Source: Vulcanimicrobiales bacterium (lineage in GTDB: Bacteria > Vulcanimicrobiota > Vulcanimicrobiia > Vulcanimicrobiales > Vulcanimicrobiaceae). Taken from it: a stretch of DNA of 64,000 nt. Positions within the stretch are counted from its first letter, which is position 1; each line of letters starts with the position of its first letter. Both the position numbers and the translations under genes were made by a program. A model generated the notes under the pieces. It saw nothing but the letters and a program-made list of their open reading frames with translations. It was not told the origin of the DNA and did no database searches. The DNA lies in NCBI GenBank assembly GCA_038231455.1, contig JBBRLI010000013.1, positions 1-64,000 of the forward strand, given 5' to 3'. Below, one piece after another: positions 25,300 to 31,109 of this stretch.

Positions 25300-27600
25300 A
25301 TGACACCCCTCGCTTGGATCCGCCGCGCCTTCGCGCTTGCGATCGTTCTCTCGCTCGTCGCTCCGCTCGCCGCACTCGCGGCCGACCGGGTCTACGTCGA
25401 ATGGTCGGTCAACGGCCTCACACGCGAGCCGGTGCTGGTTGTCTTCCGTAATGACGACGTCTTGGTCGAACGCGGCGATTTAACCGCCGCCGAAATTCCG
25501 CTCGACCGACACACCGGCGAGCGGATCTTCGACCACGAGTATCTATCGCTAACGTCGCTCAGCGAAATCCTCACCTACGTCCTCGACCGCAAGACGCTCG
25601 AATTACGCGTGTCGCTCAAGGCGCGCGCATTGCAGCGTCGCTCGGCGGATCTCGGTTCCGTTGAGCCGACCGATGTGAGCGTCGCGGCCACACGCAGCCT
25701 CGTGCTGAATTACGGCGTCCACGACGACAGCGTCGCCGGATTTAGCGGATCGCTCGAAGCGCGCGTCAATCTCGCGCGGGGAGTGCTCTTCGATGCAAGC
25801 GCCGTGAAGGATGAGGGGGCGACGCTGCGACGCGGCATCGCGAACCTCACCTTCGATGTGCCCGCACATCTTCGTCGCACCATCATCGGCGATACGATCG
25901 CCGGCGGCGCGGATCTCGGAGGCGGCGCGCTGCTCGGCGGGGTGACGGTGCGTCGGCAGTTCGATGAGAACCCGTACGTCATCACCTATCCGTTGCCGTC
26001 ATTACAGGCGACCGTCCTACAACCGACGCGCGCTGATTTTTTCGTGAACGGCGTGCTCGTAAAATCAATCGAGCTCGCCCCCGGAACGTACGATCTCAAT
26101 AATCTTCCGTTGCGTTCCGGTATTTCGCACGCACAGGTGGAGCTCCATTCCGCCGGCGGTACGCAGTTGCTGCTCGACTCCGTTCTCTACGGATCGGCGG
26201 GGCTGTTGCGCAAAGGTCTGACCGACTACAGCTACTCGGCGGGCGCGGTACGCAACGACGTCGAGAGCGCCGGAGATTCGTATGGCGAGCGTGCCGTCTC
26301 TGGCCGGTATCGACTCGGACTAACGAATCAATCGACGCTCGGAGCGCATGTGGAATCGACGCCGCATCTCGCCGATGCCGGGATCGAGTATGACGGAGCG
26401 CTTGCGCGCGGCGACGTGCATACCGCCGTTGCGTCGAGTAACAACGGTGGCATCGCGGGGATGGCCGCGACGGCGGGGTACTTCAGCGCCGGAATCAGCG
26501 GCGGCTTCAGCATCCTTGCGCGAATACAAACCGCGCACTTCAGCACGCTGAGTTTGCGCGCTGCCGACGACCGCGCGCTCTCGCAATTCGCCGTCTCCGC
26601 GGCGCGCGGGCTGCCCGGTCGTATCAGCGCCTCGTTTAGCCTGCAGGCAACGCAATACCGCGATAGCGGCAACGTGCAGACCGCGGTCATCGCCCTGCAG
26701 CGCTACGTGCACGATTTCAATGGAATACTCAGTTACACGGCCAACCGGCGTTCAGCCACTGGCGGCGCGCTCGCGAGCAGCGTCCAATTCTCGCTTGGAC
26801 GCGCGATCGGGCGCTCCGGGTACGCATCCGTAACCTCACAAGCCGATGACACCTCGAGAACGACGCTGCAAATCCAACGCTCCGCGACCTCGCCGCTCGA
26901 TACGCAATATTCGCTCGCACTGAGCAACAATCCATATGCGCCCGTGGGTGGAAACCTCCAAACGGGGTTTGCATTTGCAACCATCGGAGCCGCCGTGAAC
27001 GGAACCGGAAACGGTCGATATACGGAAGCGTTGAACCTGAGCGGATCGATCGTGCGGGTCGGCGCCGTGACGCTTTTCAGCCAGCCGATCCCCGATGCGT
27101 ACGCAATCGTCGAAGCACCCGGAATGGGCGGTGCAAACGTCACGTTGAACAACCAGATCGTCGCGCGGACGAATCGGGCGGGATACGCGGTCGTCCCGGG
27201 GCTTGGGTCGTACCTTCCCAGTATCGTCGGCATTTCCGATGTGAATCTGCCTTTTGATGAGTTGGTCGGCGGCGATCAACGTATCGCGCCCGGTTTCAAG
27301 GGCGCGGGCATCGTTCGCTACGCCTCGCATCGCGAACACGGAATCGTTGGATCGGCGCAGGTCCGTCGAACGGGCCGCGGCGAGCCGGCCGCGTACGGAC
27401 AGATCGAATTGCGTTTGGGTAAGGTCATCCAGACCTCACCGACCGATGCCGACGGACGATTTTATTTCGAACATCTGGCAACCGGTGTGTACGAAGCAAC
27501 GATCTCGGACACATACGGCGTGCGCTGCACCGCACAGGTGCGCATCCCAGAGTTTTCGGGCGCGCAATTCTCACTGGGGACAGTCACATGCGTCGAGTAG
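25300..27600 (+). CDS. Outer-membrane usher (CsuD/PapC-like)
   Basis: GGALLGGV, FVNG, LLRKGLTDYSYSAG, YRLGLTN, TNRAGY, C-terminal Cys pair; 766 aa. Confidence 0.88.
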   Translation: MTPLAWIRRAFALAIVLSLVAPLAALAADRVYVEWSVNGLTREPVLVVFRNDDVLVERGDLTAAEIPLDRHTGERIFDHEYLSLTSLSEILTYVLDRKTLELRVSLKARALQRRSADLGSVEPTDVSVAATRSLVLNYGVHDDSVAGFSGSLEARVNLARGVLFDASAVKDEGATLRRGIANLTFDVPAHLRRTIIGDTIAGGADLGGGALLGGVTVRRQFDENPYVITYPLPSLQATVLQPTRADFFVNGVLVKSIELAPGTYDLNNLPLRSGISHAQVELHSAGGTQLLLDSVLYGSAGLLRKGLTDYSYSAGAVRNDVESAGDSYGERAVSGRYRLGLTNQSTLGAHVESTPHLADAGIEYDGALARGDVHTAVASSNNGGIAGMAATAGYFSAGISGGFSILARIQTAHFSTLSLRAADDRALSQFAVSAARGLPGRISASFSLQATQYRDSGNVQTAVIALQRYVHDFNGILSYTANRRSATGGALASSVQFSLGRAIGRSGYASVTSQADDTSRTTLQIQRSATSPLDTQYSLALSNNPYAPVGGNLQTGFAFATIGAAVNGTGNGRYTEALNLSGSIVRVGAVTLFSQPIPDAYAIVEAPGMGGANVTLNNQIVARTNRAGYAVVPGLGSYLPSIVGISDVNLPFDELVGGDQRIAPGFKGAGIVRYASHREHGIVGSAQVRRTGRGEPAAYGQIELRLGKVIQTSPTDADGRFYFEHLATGVYEATISDTYGVRCTAQVRIPEFSGAQFSLGTVTCVE

Positions 27601-28055
27601 CGCTCGCTCTCGCACTCATCTGCGTCTTGTGCCGGCCCGCGATCGCCGGGCCGCTTAGCTGTTCTGAGACCGCTACAAGCGGCCTGATCTTTACGAACGC
27701 ATATAACGTGTACGCTCTCACCACGTACAGTGTCACGGCGACGGTCGGCGTGACTTGCAACAAAAATAACGTCCCTTATACGATATCGGCCAACGCCGGG
27801 ATGCATAGTGTGGCGCTTCCGAATCGAGACTTGAAGTACGTCAGCGGGGCGGACGTACTTCCCTACTTCCTCTACACCACTGCCGCGCACACGACGGTTT
27901 TTGGTGACGGAACCAACGGCACGGCAATCATCAACGCAAATAACCCAAGTTCTGGTACGCAGTATACAACCAGCATCTACGGAACGCTGGCGGCGGGTGC
28001 CGACGTGACGGCCGGTAGTTATACGGATACGGTCACGCTGACCGTCACGTATTAA
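27588..28055 (+). CDS. Second spore coat U domain pilin (single domain)
   Basis: Signal peptide, Cys pair, LPYFLY, IYGTL, AGSYTDTVTLTVTY. Confidence 0.82.
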   Translation: MRRVALALALICVLCRPAIAGPLSCSETATSGLIFTNAYNVYALTTYSVTATVGVTCNKNNVPYTISANAGMHSVALPNRDLKYVSGADVLPYFLYTTAAHTTVFGDGTNGTAIINANNPSSGTQYTTSIYGTLAAGADVTAGSYTDTVTLTVTY

Positions 28056-28061
28056 TATCGA

Positions 28062-28328
28062 CTAACGCTTTTTCGTGACTTCGACGGTTGCGTGGAGTTC
28101 GCTCTCGTGACCGTCGGCATCGATCACGACGTTCCAATGACCGTCGCCGGGTGCTGCAAGAACGACCGGACTCGTGCGCGCATGACCGCCGATGAACTGA
28201 TATTGGGCTTTTGATTTGAACAGCTTGAAGTTTGCGTCATCCATCAAACGCACGTTGGCTTGATGATCGAGCGTCACCCGGATTGCATCGCCTTCGCGCA
28301 ATTTAAAGTGATAGTGAAGAATCTGCAT
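28062..28328 (-). CDS. DUF1883-family small protein
   Basis: VTLDHQANVRLMDDANF, GGHARTSPV, GHWNVVID. Confidence 0.7.
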   Translation of the reverse strand: MQILHYHFKLREGDAIRVTLDHQANVRLMDDANFKLFKSKAQYQFIGGHARTSPVVLAAPGDGHWNVVIDADGHESELHATVEVTKKR

Positions 28329-28433
28329 TCGAACCTCAAGCCGATATTAAATTTAGATTACCCCGAAACACGCTCGCTCACGCATCGGTATCTTGGGCGA
28401 CAACCTCTCACCGGTTCAAGAAAGTAGCGCAAG

Positions 28434-28748
28434 ATGATCAATCTCACGCGTGCGACGCTCGTCGCCTGCGGTGTCTTTACCATTGCCGTCTCGTCGGCGC
28501 TCCCGGCGGTCGCCTCGGATTCGGGAATCGTTTCGTTTCGCTGCGCCTCCGCTGATGCCGGGTGCAACGTCGAAATACGATTGGGCACCCTGGATAGCCC
28601 CGATCAGGCGGCCCCGTACGGCTCAAAACACATCGACAAAGACTCCACCTGGGACGTCGATTCCGGCGGCCTCTACGTGTTTTACAAAGGCAAAGACGGC
28701 TCGTGGCAGCGCGTTGCCGGAAATCGCGATTCGAAAATCGACCTCTGA
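28434..28748 (+). CDS. Small secreted hypothetical protein
   Basis: Signal peptide ending AVA, Cys pair, host-like codon usage. Confidence 0.55.
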   Translation: MINLTRATLVACGVFTIAVSSALPAVASDSGIVSFRCASADAGCNVEIRLGTLDSPDQAAPYGSKHIDKDSTWDVDSGGLYVFYKGKDGSWQRVAGNRDSKIDL

Positions 28749-28774
28749 TTTGTCGTGAAATGTGCGGGTCGCTC

Positions 28775-28804
28775 TTGACAGCGGCCTGCACATCCCGGTA
28801 GGCT
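28775..28804 (+). promoter_or_regulatory. sigma70 promoter of the aromatic leader / DAHP synthase
   Basis: TTGACA-18 nt-TAGGCT; leader ATG 7 nt downstream. Confidence 0.7.
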
Positions 28805-28811
28805 CAGCGTA

Positions 28812-28874
28812 ATGAACGCGAAGTGGTTTAGCTACTGGTATTTTACGTCGCTCCAACGGATCGGCGCCGGTTAG
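28812..28874 (+). CDS. Aromatic-amino-acid attenuator leader peptide MNAKWFSYWYFTSLQRIGAG
   Basis: Six of seven consecutive codons are Trp/Phe/Tyr; lies upstream of a terminator and DAHP synthase. Confidence 0.85.
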   Translation: MNAKWFSYWYFTSLQRIGAG

Positions 28875-28910
28875 CGTTTTCTCACTTCTTCGATAGCGAT
28901 TTTGAGAACA

Positions 28911-28941
28911 AAGCTGCCCGCCGATGCGGGCGGCTTTTTTT
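28911..28941 (+). terminator. Attenuator terminator before DAHP synthase
   Basis: AAGCTGCCCGC-CGAT-GCGGGCGGCTT followed by a T tract. Confidence 0.85.
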
Positions 28942-28966
28942 ATTCCCCACAGAGGAGCCTCGACCG

Positions 28967-29806
28967 ATGATCGCCCCGTGCACGCCCTGGACCCCATCGC
29001 TCTTGCCGGCAAGCGCCGAGCAGTGGCCGCTCGTCGCGCGGCGCGGTAACGAATCGACGCTCGTGCACGTCGGTGATGCCGTCTTTGGGGCGGAGGATTT
29101 CGTCGTGATCGGCGGGCCGTGTTCGGTCGAATCGCCTGCGCAGATCGACGCTGCCGCGGCGGCCGTCGCGCGCTCCGGCGGCAAGCTGCTCCGTGGCGGC
29201 GCGTTCAAGCCGCGCACCAATCCGTACGCGTTCCAGGGGCTGGGTTGGGATGGGGTCGATCTGCTCGCGGCCGCCGGACGCCGTTACGGGCTACCGGTGG
29301 TGAGTGAAGTGATGTCGATCGACCAAGTCGATCGCATGGCAGAATCCATCGACGTGCTGCAAGTTGGGGCGCGCAATATGCAAAACTTCGATCTCTTACG
29401 TGCCGTCGGCCGTTCGCATCGACCGGTCTTACTCAAACGCGGCATGAGTGCGACGCTCGACGAACTGCTCTGCGCTGCAGAATACATCGTCAACGAAGGC
29501 AACAAGAATGTGATCTTGTGCGAGCGTGGGATTCGCACGTTCGAAACCTCGACGCGCAATACGCTCGATCTCGGCGCAATCGTCGTGCTCCGCGAACGCA
29601 CGCACTTGCCGATCATCGTCGATCCCTCGCACGCGGTAGGTGTACGGCGTTGGATTCCACCGCTCTGTCGCGCGGCGCAAGCCGTCGGCGCGCATGGCTT
29701 GATGATTGAAGTGCATCCCGAACCGTGCGAGGCGCTCTGCGACCGCGACCAAGCCCTCGACCTTGAGGACTTCGCCGCGGTCATGGCATCGCTTAAGCGG
29801 GGCTGA
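28967..29806 (+). CDS. aroF: DAHP synthase, type I-beta, catalytic domain only
   Basis: [45 protein letters not shown]; 279 aa. Confidence 0.92.
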
Positions 29807-31109
29807 GCTCGCGGCGAAAGGATTCCGTCGCTGCGAAGGCTTGCGCGAGATCGGCGATGAGATCGTCCGCATCTTCGATGCCAACCGAGAGTCGTACGAG
29901 ATCGGGCGTGACGCCGGCCTCGATTTGTTCGACGACCGTAAGCTGTTGGTGCGTCGTCGTCGATGGGTGGATCGCAAGCGACTTTGCATCGCCGACGTTC
30001 GCGAGCAGAGAGAACAGCTTGAGTGCATCGATGAACGCCTTGGCCGCGGCAGCGCCGCCTTTCACGCCGAACGTAAGGATCGCGCCCTGCCCTTTGGGCA
30101 AGTACTTCTTGGCAAGCGGATGAGCGCGATCACCTTCGAGTCCCGGATACTGCACCCACACGACCTCGCCGCGGCCTTGTAAGAACGTTGCGACGCGCAG
30201 CGCGTTTGTCGAGTGGCGCTCGACGCGTAAGCCGAGCGTCTCGAGGCCCTGAAGAAGAAGCCAGCCGTTGAACGGTGAGAGCGAGGATCCCAAGTCTCGC
30301 AGCAACTGGACCCGTGCTTTGACGATGAATGCCATGTTCCCGAACGAGGCTACGTAGCGAACGCCATGATACGACGGATCGGGGTCGGTGAGTTCGGGGA
30401 ATTTTCCCGATGCGGCCCAATCGAAGTTGCCGCCGTCGACGATGACGCCGCCGATTGTCGTTCCGTGTCCGCCGATAAATTTCGTCGCCGAGTGGGTGAC
30501 GACGTTTGCGCCGTGTTTGATCGGATTGCTCAGATACGGCGTCGCAAGCGTGTTATCGACGATGAGCGGGATCTTCGCTTCGTGGGCGATAGCGGCCACC
30601 GCTTCGATGTCGAGTACGTCGACTTTCGGATTGCCGATGGTCTCTGCAAAAATCGCCTTCGTATTGGGTTTGATCGCGTTTTTGAAATTCGCGAGCTTAC
30701 CCGGGTCGACGAGCGTCACCTCGATGCCGAATTTTGGCAGCGTGTGGACGAAGGCGGAGTGCGTCCCGCCGTACAGCGATGCGGAGCTTACGATGTGATC
30801 GCCTGCGCGGGCGATGTTGAGAATCGCGAAGATGTTCGCCGCTTGTCCTGAGGCGACGGCAAGTGCACCAACGCCGCCTTCGAGGACGGCGAGCCGCTGT
30901 TCGAGCACGTCGTTTGTGGGGTTCATGATACGCGTGTAGATGTTGCCGAACTCTTGGAGTCCGAAGAGACGCTCCGCGTGCGCGGTATCATCGAAGGTGT
31001 AGGACGTCGTTTGATAGATTGGAACGGCCCGGGCCTTCGTCGTTGGGTCGCCGCTATGACCCGCGTGAATTGCTGCGGTATCGAACTTGTACGCGTGCTC
31101 GTCGGACAT
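29793..31109 (-). CDS. metY: O-acetylhomoserine/O-acetylserine sulfhydrylase
   Basis: [20 protein letters not shown] lysine [28 protein letters not shown]. Confidence 0.9.

Follow-up and report, generated by a model that had tools for sequence, protein, structure and literature searches.

The window analysed here is a 64,000-nucleotide (nt) stretch of DNA from a Vulcanimicrobiales bacterium (contig JBBRLI010000013.1, positions 1 to 64,000). On its + strand it carries a gene for a type I-beta 3-deoxy-D-arabino-heptulosonate 7-phosphate (DAHP) synthase, preceded by a short open reading frame (ORF) and a hairpin with the features of a terminator; the subject of this work is the candidate attenuator that the ORF and the hairpin form. 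DAHP synthase is the entry to aromatic amino-acid synthesis, and in Escherichia coli the isozymes AroF, AroG and AroH are under isozyme-specific control through allostery and repressors.

The leader ORF and the gene it precedes

The leader ORF extends from an ATG at 28812 to a TAG stop codon at 28872-28874 (+ strand), and according to the ORF listing its 20 codons encode MNAKWFSYWYFTSLQRIGAG. Six aromatic codons fall within seven (W5 F6 S7 Y8 W9 Y10 F11; TGG TTT AGC TAC TGG TAT TTT, 28824-28844, + strand). An earlier note on this DNA, made from its letters, had claimed two Trp, two Phe and two Tyr within seven leader codons, and they are present where it had placed them. Both Phe codons are TTT, the rarer codon. 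In a six-frame survey of the whole 3.71-Mb genome (61% G+C), 43 small ORFs of 6-50 codons had at least five aromatic residues in eight, and only 4 had at least six. Among these 4, only the window leader combines a promoter and a terminator with a gene of the aromatic pathway. Six other aromatic small ORFs of the genome were inspected as possible leaders and rejected: each lies inside a longer open frame, in another reading frame, and has neither promoter nor terminator.

The gene that follows (28967-29806, + strand) codes for a 279-amino acid (aa) protein that matches PF00793 (1e-75) and scores 360.8 bits with TIGR01361, above the curated cut-off of 267.75; the score with the KDO8P_synth model TIGR01362 was 102.3 against a cut-off of 314. 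Its reading in the earlier note as a type I-beta DAHP synthase is thus borne out. The enzyme aligns to positions 72-327 only of the 338 positions of NF006421, so it consists of the catalytic core only and lacks the N-terminal regulatory domain. From the sequence, a Shine-Dalgarno-like GAGGAG is located at 28952-28957 (+ strand), 9 nt before the ATG at 28967. The next gene, at 29793-31109, codes for a Cys/Met pyridoxal phosphate enzyme and lies on the opposite strand, so that an attenuator at this place would govern the DAHP synthase gene alone.

Terminator and alternative folds of the leader RNA

Past the leader stop codon, a terminator was found at 28910-28937, with 12 pairs (8 of them G-C), a 4-nt loop and a T-rich tail. 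Four regions could be assigned in the RNA, all of them on the + strand. Region 1 (28831-28850) is the anti-antiterminator strand; in the minimum free energy (MFE) fold of untranslated RNA (28805-28945), its nucleotides 28831-28838 pair with 28867-28875, and 28846-28850 with 28862-28866. Region 2 (28860-28875), the 5' strand of the antiterminator, overlaps the stop codon and the four leader codons before it (-12 to +3, counted from the first base of the stop), and pairs alternatively with 28913-28925. Region 3 (28910-28925), the alternative partner of region 2, comprises the terminator 5' arm (28910-28921) and loop (28922-28925), and region 4 (28926-28941) the terminator 3' arm (28926-28937) and the U tract (T7 at 28935-28941). 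A nested hairpin (28879-28908) lies within the antiterminator.

The antiterminator is composed of the helices AUCGGCG (28860-28866) with CGCCGAU (28919-28925), GGU (28869-28871) with GCC (28916-28918) and AGC (28873-28875) with GCU (28913-28915), together with the nested helix UUCUCA (28879-28884) with UGAGAA (28903-28908). Of the 16 nt in the terminator 5' arm and loop it takes up 13, and at -24.3 kcal/mol it is lower in energy than the terminator hairpin (-21.3 kcal/mol). The first and the nested of these helices had been pointed out in the earlier note; both are confirmed, and both occur in the MFE fold of the RNA cut before the terminator 3' arm. The antiterminator as a whole is longer than was then seen.

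Folding with ribosome-occlusion constraints gave three states. In naked RNA region 1 was paired with region 2, and the terminator formed with 12 of 12 pairs. With a ribosome on the stop codon (28857-28886 blocked) the terminator again formed with 12 of 12 pairs. When the ribosome was placed at W5, F6, Y8, W9, Y10 or F11, in RNA ended at the terminator loop, the MFE structure was the antiterminator. These results support the proposal, made before any folding, that a stalled ribosome frees the RNA from 28860 onward and that a ribosome at the stop codon (28872) masks it. All the parts required of an attenuator were thus found in silico: an ORF with a cluster of regulatory codons, a terminator, an exclusive antiterminator that is masked by a ribosome at the stop, and an anti-antiterminator formed by regions 1 and 2.

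The leader RNA (28805-28945) folds at -51.2 kcal/mol, compared with -39.3 ± 3.7 kcal/mol for shuffled sequences (z -3.2; 3 of 200 as stable). Adding the terminator 5' arm brought an energy gain of 13.5 kcal/mol, versus 5.3 ± 3.0 kcal/mol in 200 dinucleotide shuffles of the segment upstream of the terminator, 2% of which reached the native value. An Rfam scan of 28000-30000 at E up to 10 returned 13 weak matches, mainly over the terminator and none at its gathering score. The best were Hrs13 (21.3 bits of the 52 needed) and Leu_leader (RF00512; 20 of 50); Phe_leader (RF01859) scored 17.8 of 55, and in the same interval and at the same E value there was no match to Trp_leader (RF00513).

Leaders, promoters and isozymes in related genomes

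A DAHP synthase was present in all 41 related genomes searched. We examined 61 of the 70 matches, in 37 genomes; the others were 5 in four unpublished genomes and 4 contig-end fragments. An aromatic leader was located directly upstream of DAHP synthase at 24 of these 61 loci, in 22 of the 37 genomes; the tally comprises 14 of 30 loci, 7 of 31 further loci, and 3 loci with Trp-only clusters that fell below the first threshold. The leader of the same-genus relative is MNAKWFSSWYLTSLQRVGAG, those of other genera include MTHRAFSYWYWFAPHESMPVR, MLVRATFAYWYFSRPVGSV, MQHAPVYAYAYYFSRPVG... and MKISSSRAWWWLTARQMPVS, and MSTSPRSYFAYWYFTDAHRRSG comes from another family of the order. The search for homologous leaders before DAHP synthases that the earlier note had proposed therefore revealed them, with the same architecture, and their aromatic codons are conserved. 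ORFs with at least five aromatic residues in eight ended in 16 of the 61 upstream intervals (27.5 kb in total). As a control, the rest of the same loci was searched on both strands (334 kb); it contained 2 such ORFs, both of them true leaders that lie outside the interval as defined.

Downstream of each of the 24 leaders comes a hairpin that is rich in G+C and ends in a U-rich tail; in the 21 loci measured it lies 20-37 nt past the stop codon. The three-state folding behaviour was observed in all 21 leaders tested. An antiterminator was found in 24 of 24, with its 5' strand within -33 to +25 of the stop codon, and 21-57 nt separate the stop from the last aromatic codon in the cluster. The sequence of the antiterminator helix varies by group and the pairing is kept: AUCGGCG/CGCCGAU in the window, GGUGAGG/CCUCACC and GGAGCGG/CCGCUCC elsewhere. 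Structural support comes from per-sequence folding and shuffles; in a MAFFT alignment of 10 clade members (54% mean column identity) the terminator arms were out of register.

Codon usage separates the leaders from the genes that they precede. In 21 leaders Phe is encoded by TTT 32 times and by TTC 5 times, versus 28 TTT and 131 TTC in the adjacent DAHP synthase coding regions, and 9171 TTT and 18896 TTC in the long open frames of the window genome. For Tyr, the leaders have 24 TAT and 33 TAC, and the adjacent DAHP synthase genes 10 TAT and 49 TAC. This preference for the rarer codon fits selection on leader translation, as in a device tuned to stall, and would be hard to explain in untranslated RNA; a need for A+U-rich, unstructured RNA would also fit these counts.

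The presence of a leader differs with the type of isozyme. It was found at none of 20 loci that code for isozymes with an N-terminal regulatory domain, at 17 of 33 loci for core or other isozymes (14 of 33 by the first threshold), and at 7 of 8 loci for fusions of prephenate dehydratase (PDT), an ACT domain and DAHP synthase, the eighth being cut by a contig end. The composition of the leaders differs as well. The 7 fusion leaders contain 7 Trp, 11 Phe and 27 Tyr (Tyr makes up 27 of 45 aromatic residues), and 14 core leaders contain 23 Trp, 26 Phe and 30 Tyr (30 of 79). Two genomes, G008 (loci L006 and L132) and G019 (L004 and L126), carry both kinds: the fusion has a Tyr-rich leader, and a core isozyme has a WWW leader. 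Two attenuated isozymes with different leaders in one genome suggest that isozyme specificity is set by the leader codons. The genus of the window has only one attenuated isozyme, with a mixed leader, which fits integration in one leader, in a sample that is small and made up of kindred genomes. That leader composition changes with the isozyme is consistent with the idea that codon identity sets the signal.

In a quick tree (SH-aLRT, midpoint root), the window enzyme and that of the same-genus relative were sister to the fusion group with a support of 97, and the window enzyme itself has no fused PDT-ACT part. The clade that holds the window has a leader in 19 of its 20 rows, and the twentieth is a locus truncated at the end of its contig. 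The second DAHP synthase of the window genome (L111:1270-2316, contig C3; 348 aa) has the N-terminal regulatory domain, and no leader was found upstream of it. It directly follows a gene for a CM_1 (AroH-type) chorismate mutase (L111:896-2316 for the pair), and a stand-alone PDT gene is located at G000:C1:228065-228598. The best named relative of the window enzyme (66% identity) belongs to a metagenome-assembled genome (MAG) labelled Vulcanimicrobiota, a phylum name that we take to be the same as Eremiobacterota/WPS-2, and this MAG also has a PDT-ACT fusion. From this hit and the shared fusion, the window can be placed in that phylum tentatively.

The three-domain fusion is an observation in its own right. 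The protein of ∼590 aa, with PDT, ACT and DAHP synthase in one chain, occurs in 8 relatives (L003-L010; for example L004:568-2340) and in the named MAG (L031), and we know of no earlier description of it. A third group of loci consists of core DAHP synthases without leaders (L113-L116, L121, L134, L136 and others). Their genes directly follow one whose product ends in ...HEGKNRQVRRMFEA... and which may be pseudouridine-synthase-like.

Small ORFs with at least five aromatic residues in eight were also found upstream of DAHP synthase at 32 of 80 loci from other phyla, as judged by ORF composition alone. By G+C content, these were 13 of 26 loci in the low, 8 of 14 in the medium and 11 of 40 in the high class, where the background expectation per upstream interval is 0.15, 0.08 and 0.02, respectively.

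The leader promoter was read in the sequence as a -35 box TTGACA at 28775-28780 and a -10 box TAGGCT at 28799-28804 (both + strand), with a spacer of 18 nt between the boxes and 7 nt from the -10 box to the leader ATG. The -35 box lies at the same distance from the ATG in 16 of 16 window-family loci. Among these 16 promoters the -35 box is TTGACA in 15 and TTGACG in 1, the spacer is 17-18 nt, and a T[A/T]nnnT -10 box, usually with a TG one base before it, is followed after 6-9 nt by the ATG. No Shine-Dalgarno word was found between -20 and -4 of the leader ATG in any of the 16 loci, the window included. The spacing of the boxes predicts a transcription start at ∼28811-28812, on the A of the ATG or directly beside it, so that the leader ORF of the window appears to be leaderless.

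A genome search for TTGAC-N18-20-TnnnnT-N5-10-ATG, with a 6-40-codon ORF and then a hairpin with T5 after it, found two places, the window leader and a Cys/Met-rich one. The latter is located outside the window (locus L143; G000 contig C1:450759-450818, - strand) and has the same build: TTGACG-N17-TAGGCT-N7-ATG, the ORF MSVTVCCTMCIMCRPTGDR with 4 Cys and 3 Met, and then a GC hairpin with T6. Downstream of it are genes for an NMT1-family binding protein with a Tat signal, a BPD_transp_1 permease and an ABC ATPase. This second leader is probably a Cys/Met-sensing attenuator of an importer of the sulfonate/taurine type.

The surroundings of the window promoter showed further features. An imperfect inverted repeat (ATGTGCGGGTCGCT / AGCGGCCTGCACAT) flanks the -35 box at 28760-28794. 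In the same-genus relative the arms of the repeat are perfect over 14 nt with both arms changed, and the repeat is absent from other genera. It could be an operator, or a hairpin that ends the upstream gene. The 104-aa ORF that adjoins the leader (28434-28748, + strand) has no Pfam match. Further upstream, at 25300-28055, are genes for an outer-membrane usher (PF00577) and a spore-coat-protein-U domain protein (PF05229), a pilus cluster of the chaperone-usher type.

Proposed mode of action and relation to known attenuators

We conclude that the locus is very probably a ribosome-mediated (leader-peptide) transcription attenuator of the single catalytic-core type I-beta DAHP synthase gene. Its elements, alternative folds, conservation and codon bias are in place in silico; we infer where transcription starts, that ribosomes translate the leader, and that it responds to Trp, Phe and Tyr individually. 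Transcription would begin at or next to the leader ATG and yield a leaderless mRNA, and a ribosome would translate the 20-codon leader while RNA polymerase proceeds. With ample charged tRNA-Trp, tRNA-Phe and tRNA-Tyr, the ribosome would reach the stop codon at 28872 and mask region 2 (28860-28875), the terminator (28910-28941) would form and transcription would end before the gene. Slow reading of any of the six aromatic codons (28824-28844) would leave a stalled ribosome over region 1 and region 2 free; region 2 would then pair with the terminator 5' arm and loop, and the polymerase would read through into the gene. In untranslated RNA, the pairing of region 1 with region 2 would lead to termination too.

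Several points weigh against this reading, or against the sensing of three amino acids. The transcription start, termination and leader translation are all predictions for this organism, and a consensus promoter scan with a stricter -10 rule found 0 promoter-like sites here; our promoter call rests on the conserved spacing across loci. The shuffle test is significant but not overwhelming (2%), and relatives gave weaker values (11.5% for L012, 27% for L018 and 20.5% for L122). The stalled folds were computed on RNA that ends before the terminator 3' arm, so that the terminator was impossible by construction. With full-length RNA at equilibrium, only stalls at W5 and F6 yield the antiterminator, and the terminator stays the MFE structure for stalls from Y8 to F11; read-through would therefore depend on the kinetic order of folding, as in classical attenuators. 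No leader was found at 37 of the 61 loci, nor was a leader ORF within 260 nt upstream of the fused enzyme of the named Vulcanimicrobiota MAG (L031). Because the related genomes are kin, their leader counts are not independent of one another. Finally, the leader of the closest relative is without two of the six aromatic codons (Y8S and F11L; WFSSWYL).

The last point also bears on how many amino acids are sensed. The locus might be a true attenuator that responds to one or two of them, for example Trp and Phe, with the other aromatic codons as passengers of constraints on RNA structure or composition. The closest relative retains both Trp codons and just one Phe and one Tyr codon, and the Trp-only (WWW) leaders of relatives indicate that single-signal versions are viable. 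At aroR-aroF of Corynebacterium glutamicum, ribosome stalling at Phe limitation derepresses, and Tyr availability is without effect despite the Tyr codon of the Phe-Tyr-Phe leader (Neshat et al. 2014, as summarized in the available part of the review PMC11802643), so that the presence of a codon is no proof of sensing. Against passenger codons, a stall at each of the six aromatic codons exposes region 2, the rare TTT and TAT are enriched for Phe and Tyr alike, and composition tracks the isozyme (Tyr 27 of 45 on fusions versus 30 of 79 on core enzymes), which would be odd for passengers. We consider a sensor of fewer amino acids unlikely, and yet a serious alternative; sensing of all three by the window leader is plausible.

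The remaining explanations do without attenuation by a leader peptide. If the small ORF were not translated, the switch could be operated by a protein or a small molecule, as in a riboswitch, or the hairpin could be the terminator of the upstream gene. Leader translation is a prediction and the ATG lacks a Shine-Dalgarno word; moreover, the inverted repeat around the -35 box could in this genus be a protein-binding site, and the upstream ORF on the same strand stops at 28748. On the other hand, 24 loci that otherwise diverge in both nucleotide and peptide sequence have kept an ORF whose aromatic cluster precedes the stop by 21-57 nt, the codon bias (TTT 32 versus TTC 5) indicates translation, and no Rfam family reached its gathering score in 28000-30000. 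A conserved promoter stands between the upstream gene and the leader, and the upstream open frames are mostly unrelated across loci, with 1 homologous pair among 19 loci in a crude test on the largest open frames in GC-rich DNA. We regard this explanation as very improbable. The same low probability is given to a leader that acts chiefly on how well the DAHP synthase mRNA is translated or how stable it is, and not on termination, since a strong GC hairpin with U7 stands between leader and gene, and the GAGGAG of the gene (28952-28957) is outside all predicted helices.

Leader-peptide attenuation thus being the reading that we prefer, a broader proposal can be put forward tentatively, with a little less than even confidence. 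In this lineage (probably Vulcanimicrobiota/Eremiobacterota), leaderless leader peptides may replace allosteric domains and repressors in assigning DAHP synthase isozymes to end products, with codon composition alone setting specificity (Tyr-rich leaders on PDT-ACT-DAHP synthase fusions, WWW leaders on core enzymes). In the genus of the window, a single core isozyme without a regulatory domain would be under one leader that truly integrates the charging of the tRNAs for all three aromatic amino acids and so acts as an OR gate with three inputs on the first committed step. The codons of very short leader ORFs seem to encode the isozyme partitioning, which in the window genome seems to be merged into one mixed leader. 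The WFSYWYF, Tyr-rich and WWW leaders on related enzymes make a natural series in which codon identity, rarity (TTT over TTC) and position can be set against the specificity and gain of the attenuator. The locus would also place leader-peptide attenuation, together with predicted leaderless initiation, in a phylum known almost only from metagenomes, and aromatic leaders before DAHP synthase look widespread beyond this lineage (32 of 80 loci, by ORF composition).

With E. coli trpL and pheL the window leader shares the four-region logic, with regulatory codons in region 1, exclusive 2:3 and 3:4 pairing, and a stop codon next to region 2. It is not a member of either family by sequence and structure (17.8 versus 55 bits for Phe_leader, no match to Trp_leader). 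TrpL and pheL each read one amino acid, have a Shine-Dalgarno site and precede genes of the terminal branches rather than of the common first step. A leader that reads several amino acids of a shared pathway is familiar from enterobacterial thrL (Thr and Ile) and ilvL (Ile, Leu and Val), which differ from the window leader in their pathways and in their non-aromatic codon sets. For the leaderless start, the C. glutamicum ilvBNC leader, in work by Morbach in 2000, is said to be made without a ribosome-binding site. In mycobacteria, leaderless polycysteine short ORFs are described as attenuators in the part of the preprint available (bioRxiv 10.1101/834739). Both resemble the window leader, as far as these sources go, in an amino-acid-responsive attenuator whose ORF lies at the 5' end of the transcript without a Shine-Dalgarno site; they differ in the amino acid (Cys and Val) and the phylum, and the leaderless start of the window is predicted from promoter spacing only.

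RNA elements before aromatic genes have been surveyed previously. In the accessible parts of these papers, Seliverstov et al. (2005; PMC1262725) report no RNA elements for Phe/Tyr genes in Actinobacteria, and Table 7 of PMC1173090 lists predicted attenuators before the I-beta DAHP synthase genes of Thermus, Thermoanaerobacter and Bacteroides, with leader peptides unmentioned there. In the literature covered, with subscription journals largely outside its scope, aromatic leaders before DAHP synthase were found described for Acholeplasma and C. glutamicum only. The Acholeplasma uORFC-13-1 motif upstream of aroF, as described in the part of Brewer et al. (2021; PMC8632094) available, is a predicted upstream ORF whose Phe codons are followed directly by an intrinsic terminator and then by a DAHP synthase gene, much as the window leader is. 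By the same description it differs in having a ribosome-binding site, in a U run that codes for Phe only, and in being confined to Acholeplasma and environmental sequences.

A further parallel in arrangement is C. glutamicum aroF, upstream of which a leader peptide containing Phe-Tyr-Phe is encoded (Mentz et al. 2013; PMC4046766, in the part available). As in the window, a short mixed-aromatic leader lies upstream of a DAHP synthase gene and stalling raises read-through; it has no Trp codons, compared with two Trp, two Phe and two Tyr codons here, and belongs to the Actinomycetota, and the likeness is one of motif description and not of sequence. The remark of the earlier note that classic leaders sense only one amino acid therefore overstated the novelty, a Phe/Tyr leader before DAHP synthase being in print already (PMC4046766, PMC11802643, as far as these sources were available). 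We conclude that: i) the attenuator of the window is real and of a kind already known, and ii) what it appears to add to the known systems, as judged from sequence, is a predicted leaderless start, a strong rare-codon bias, and a leader composition that tracks isozyme architecture.

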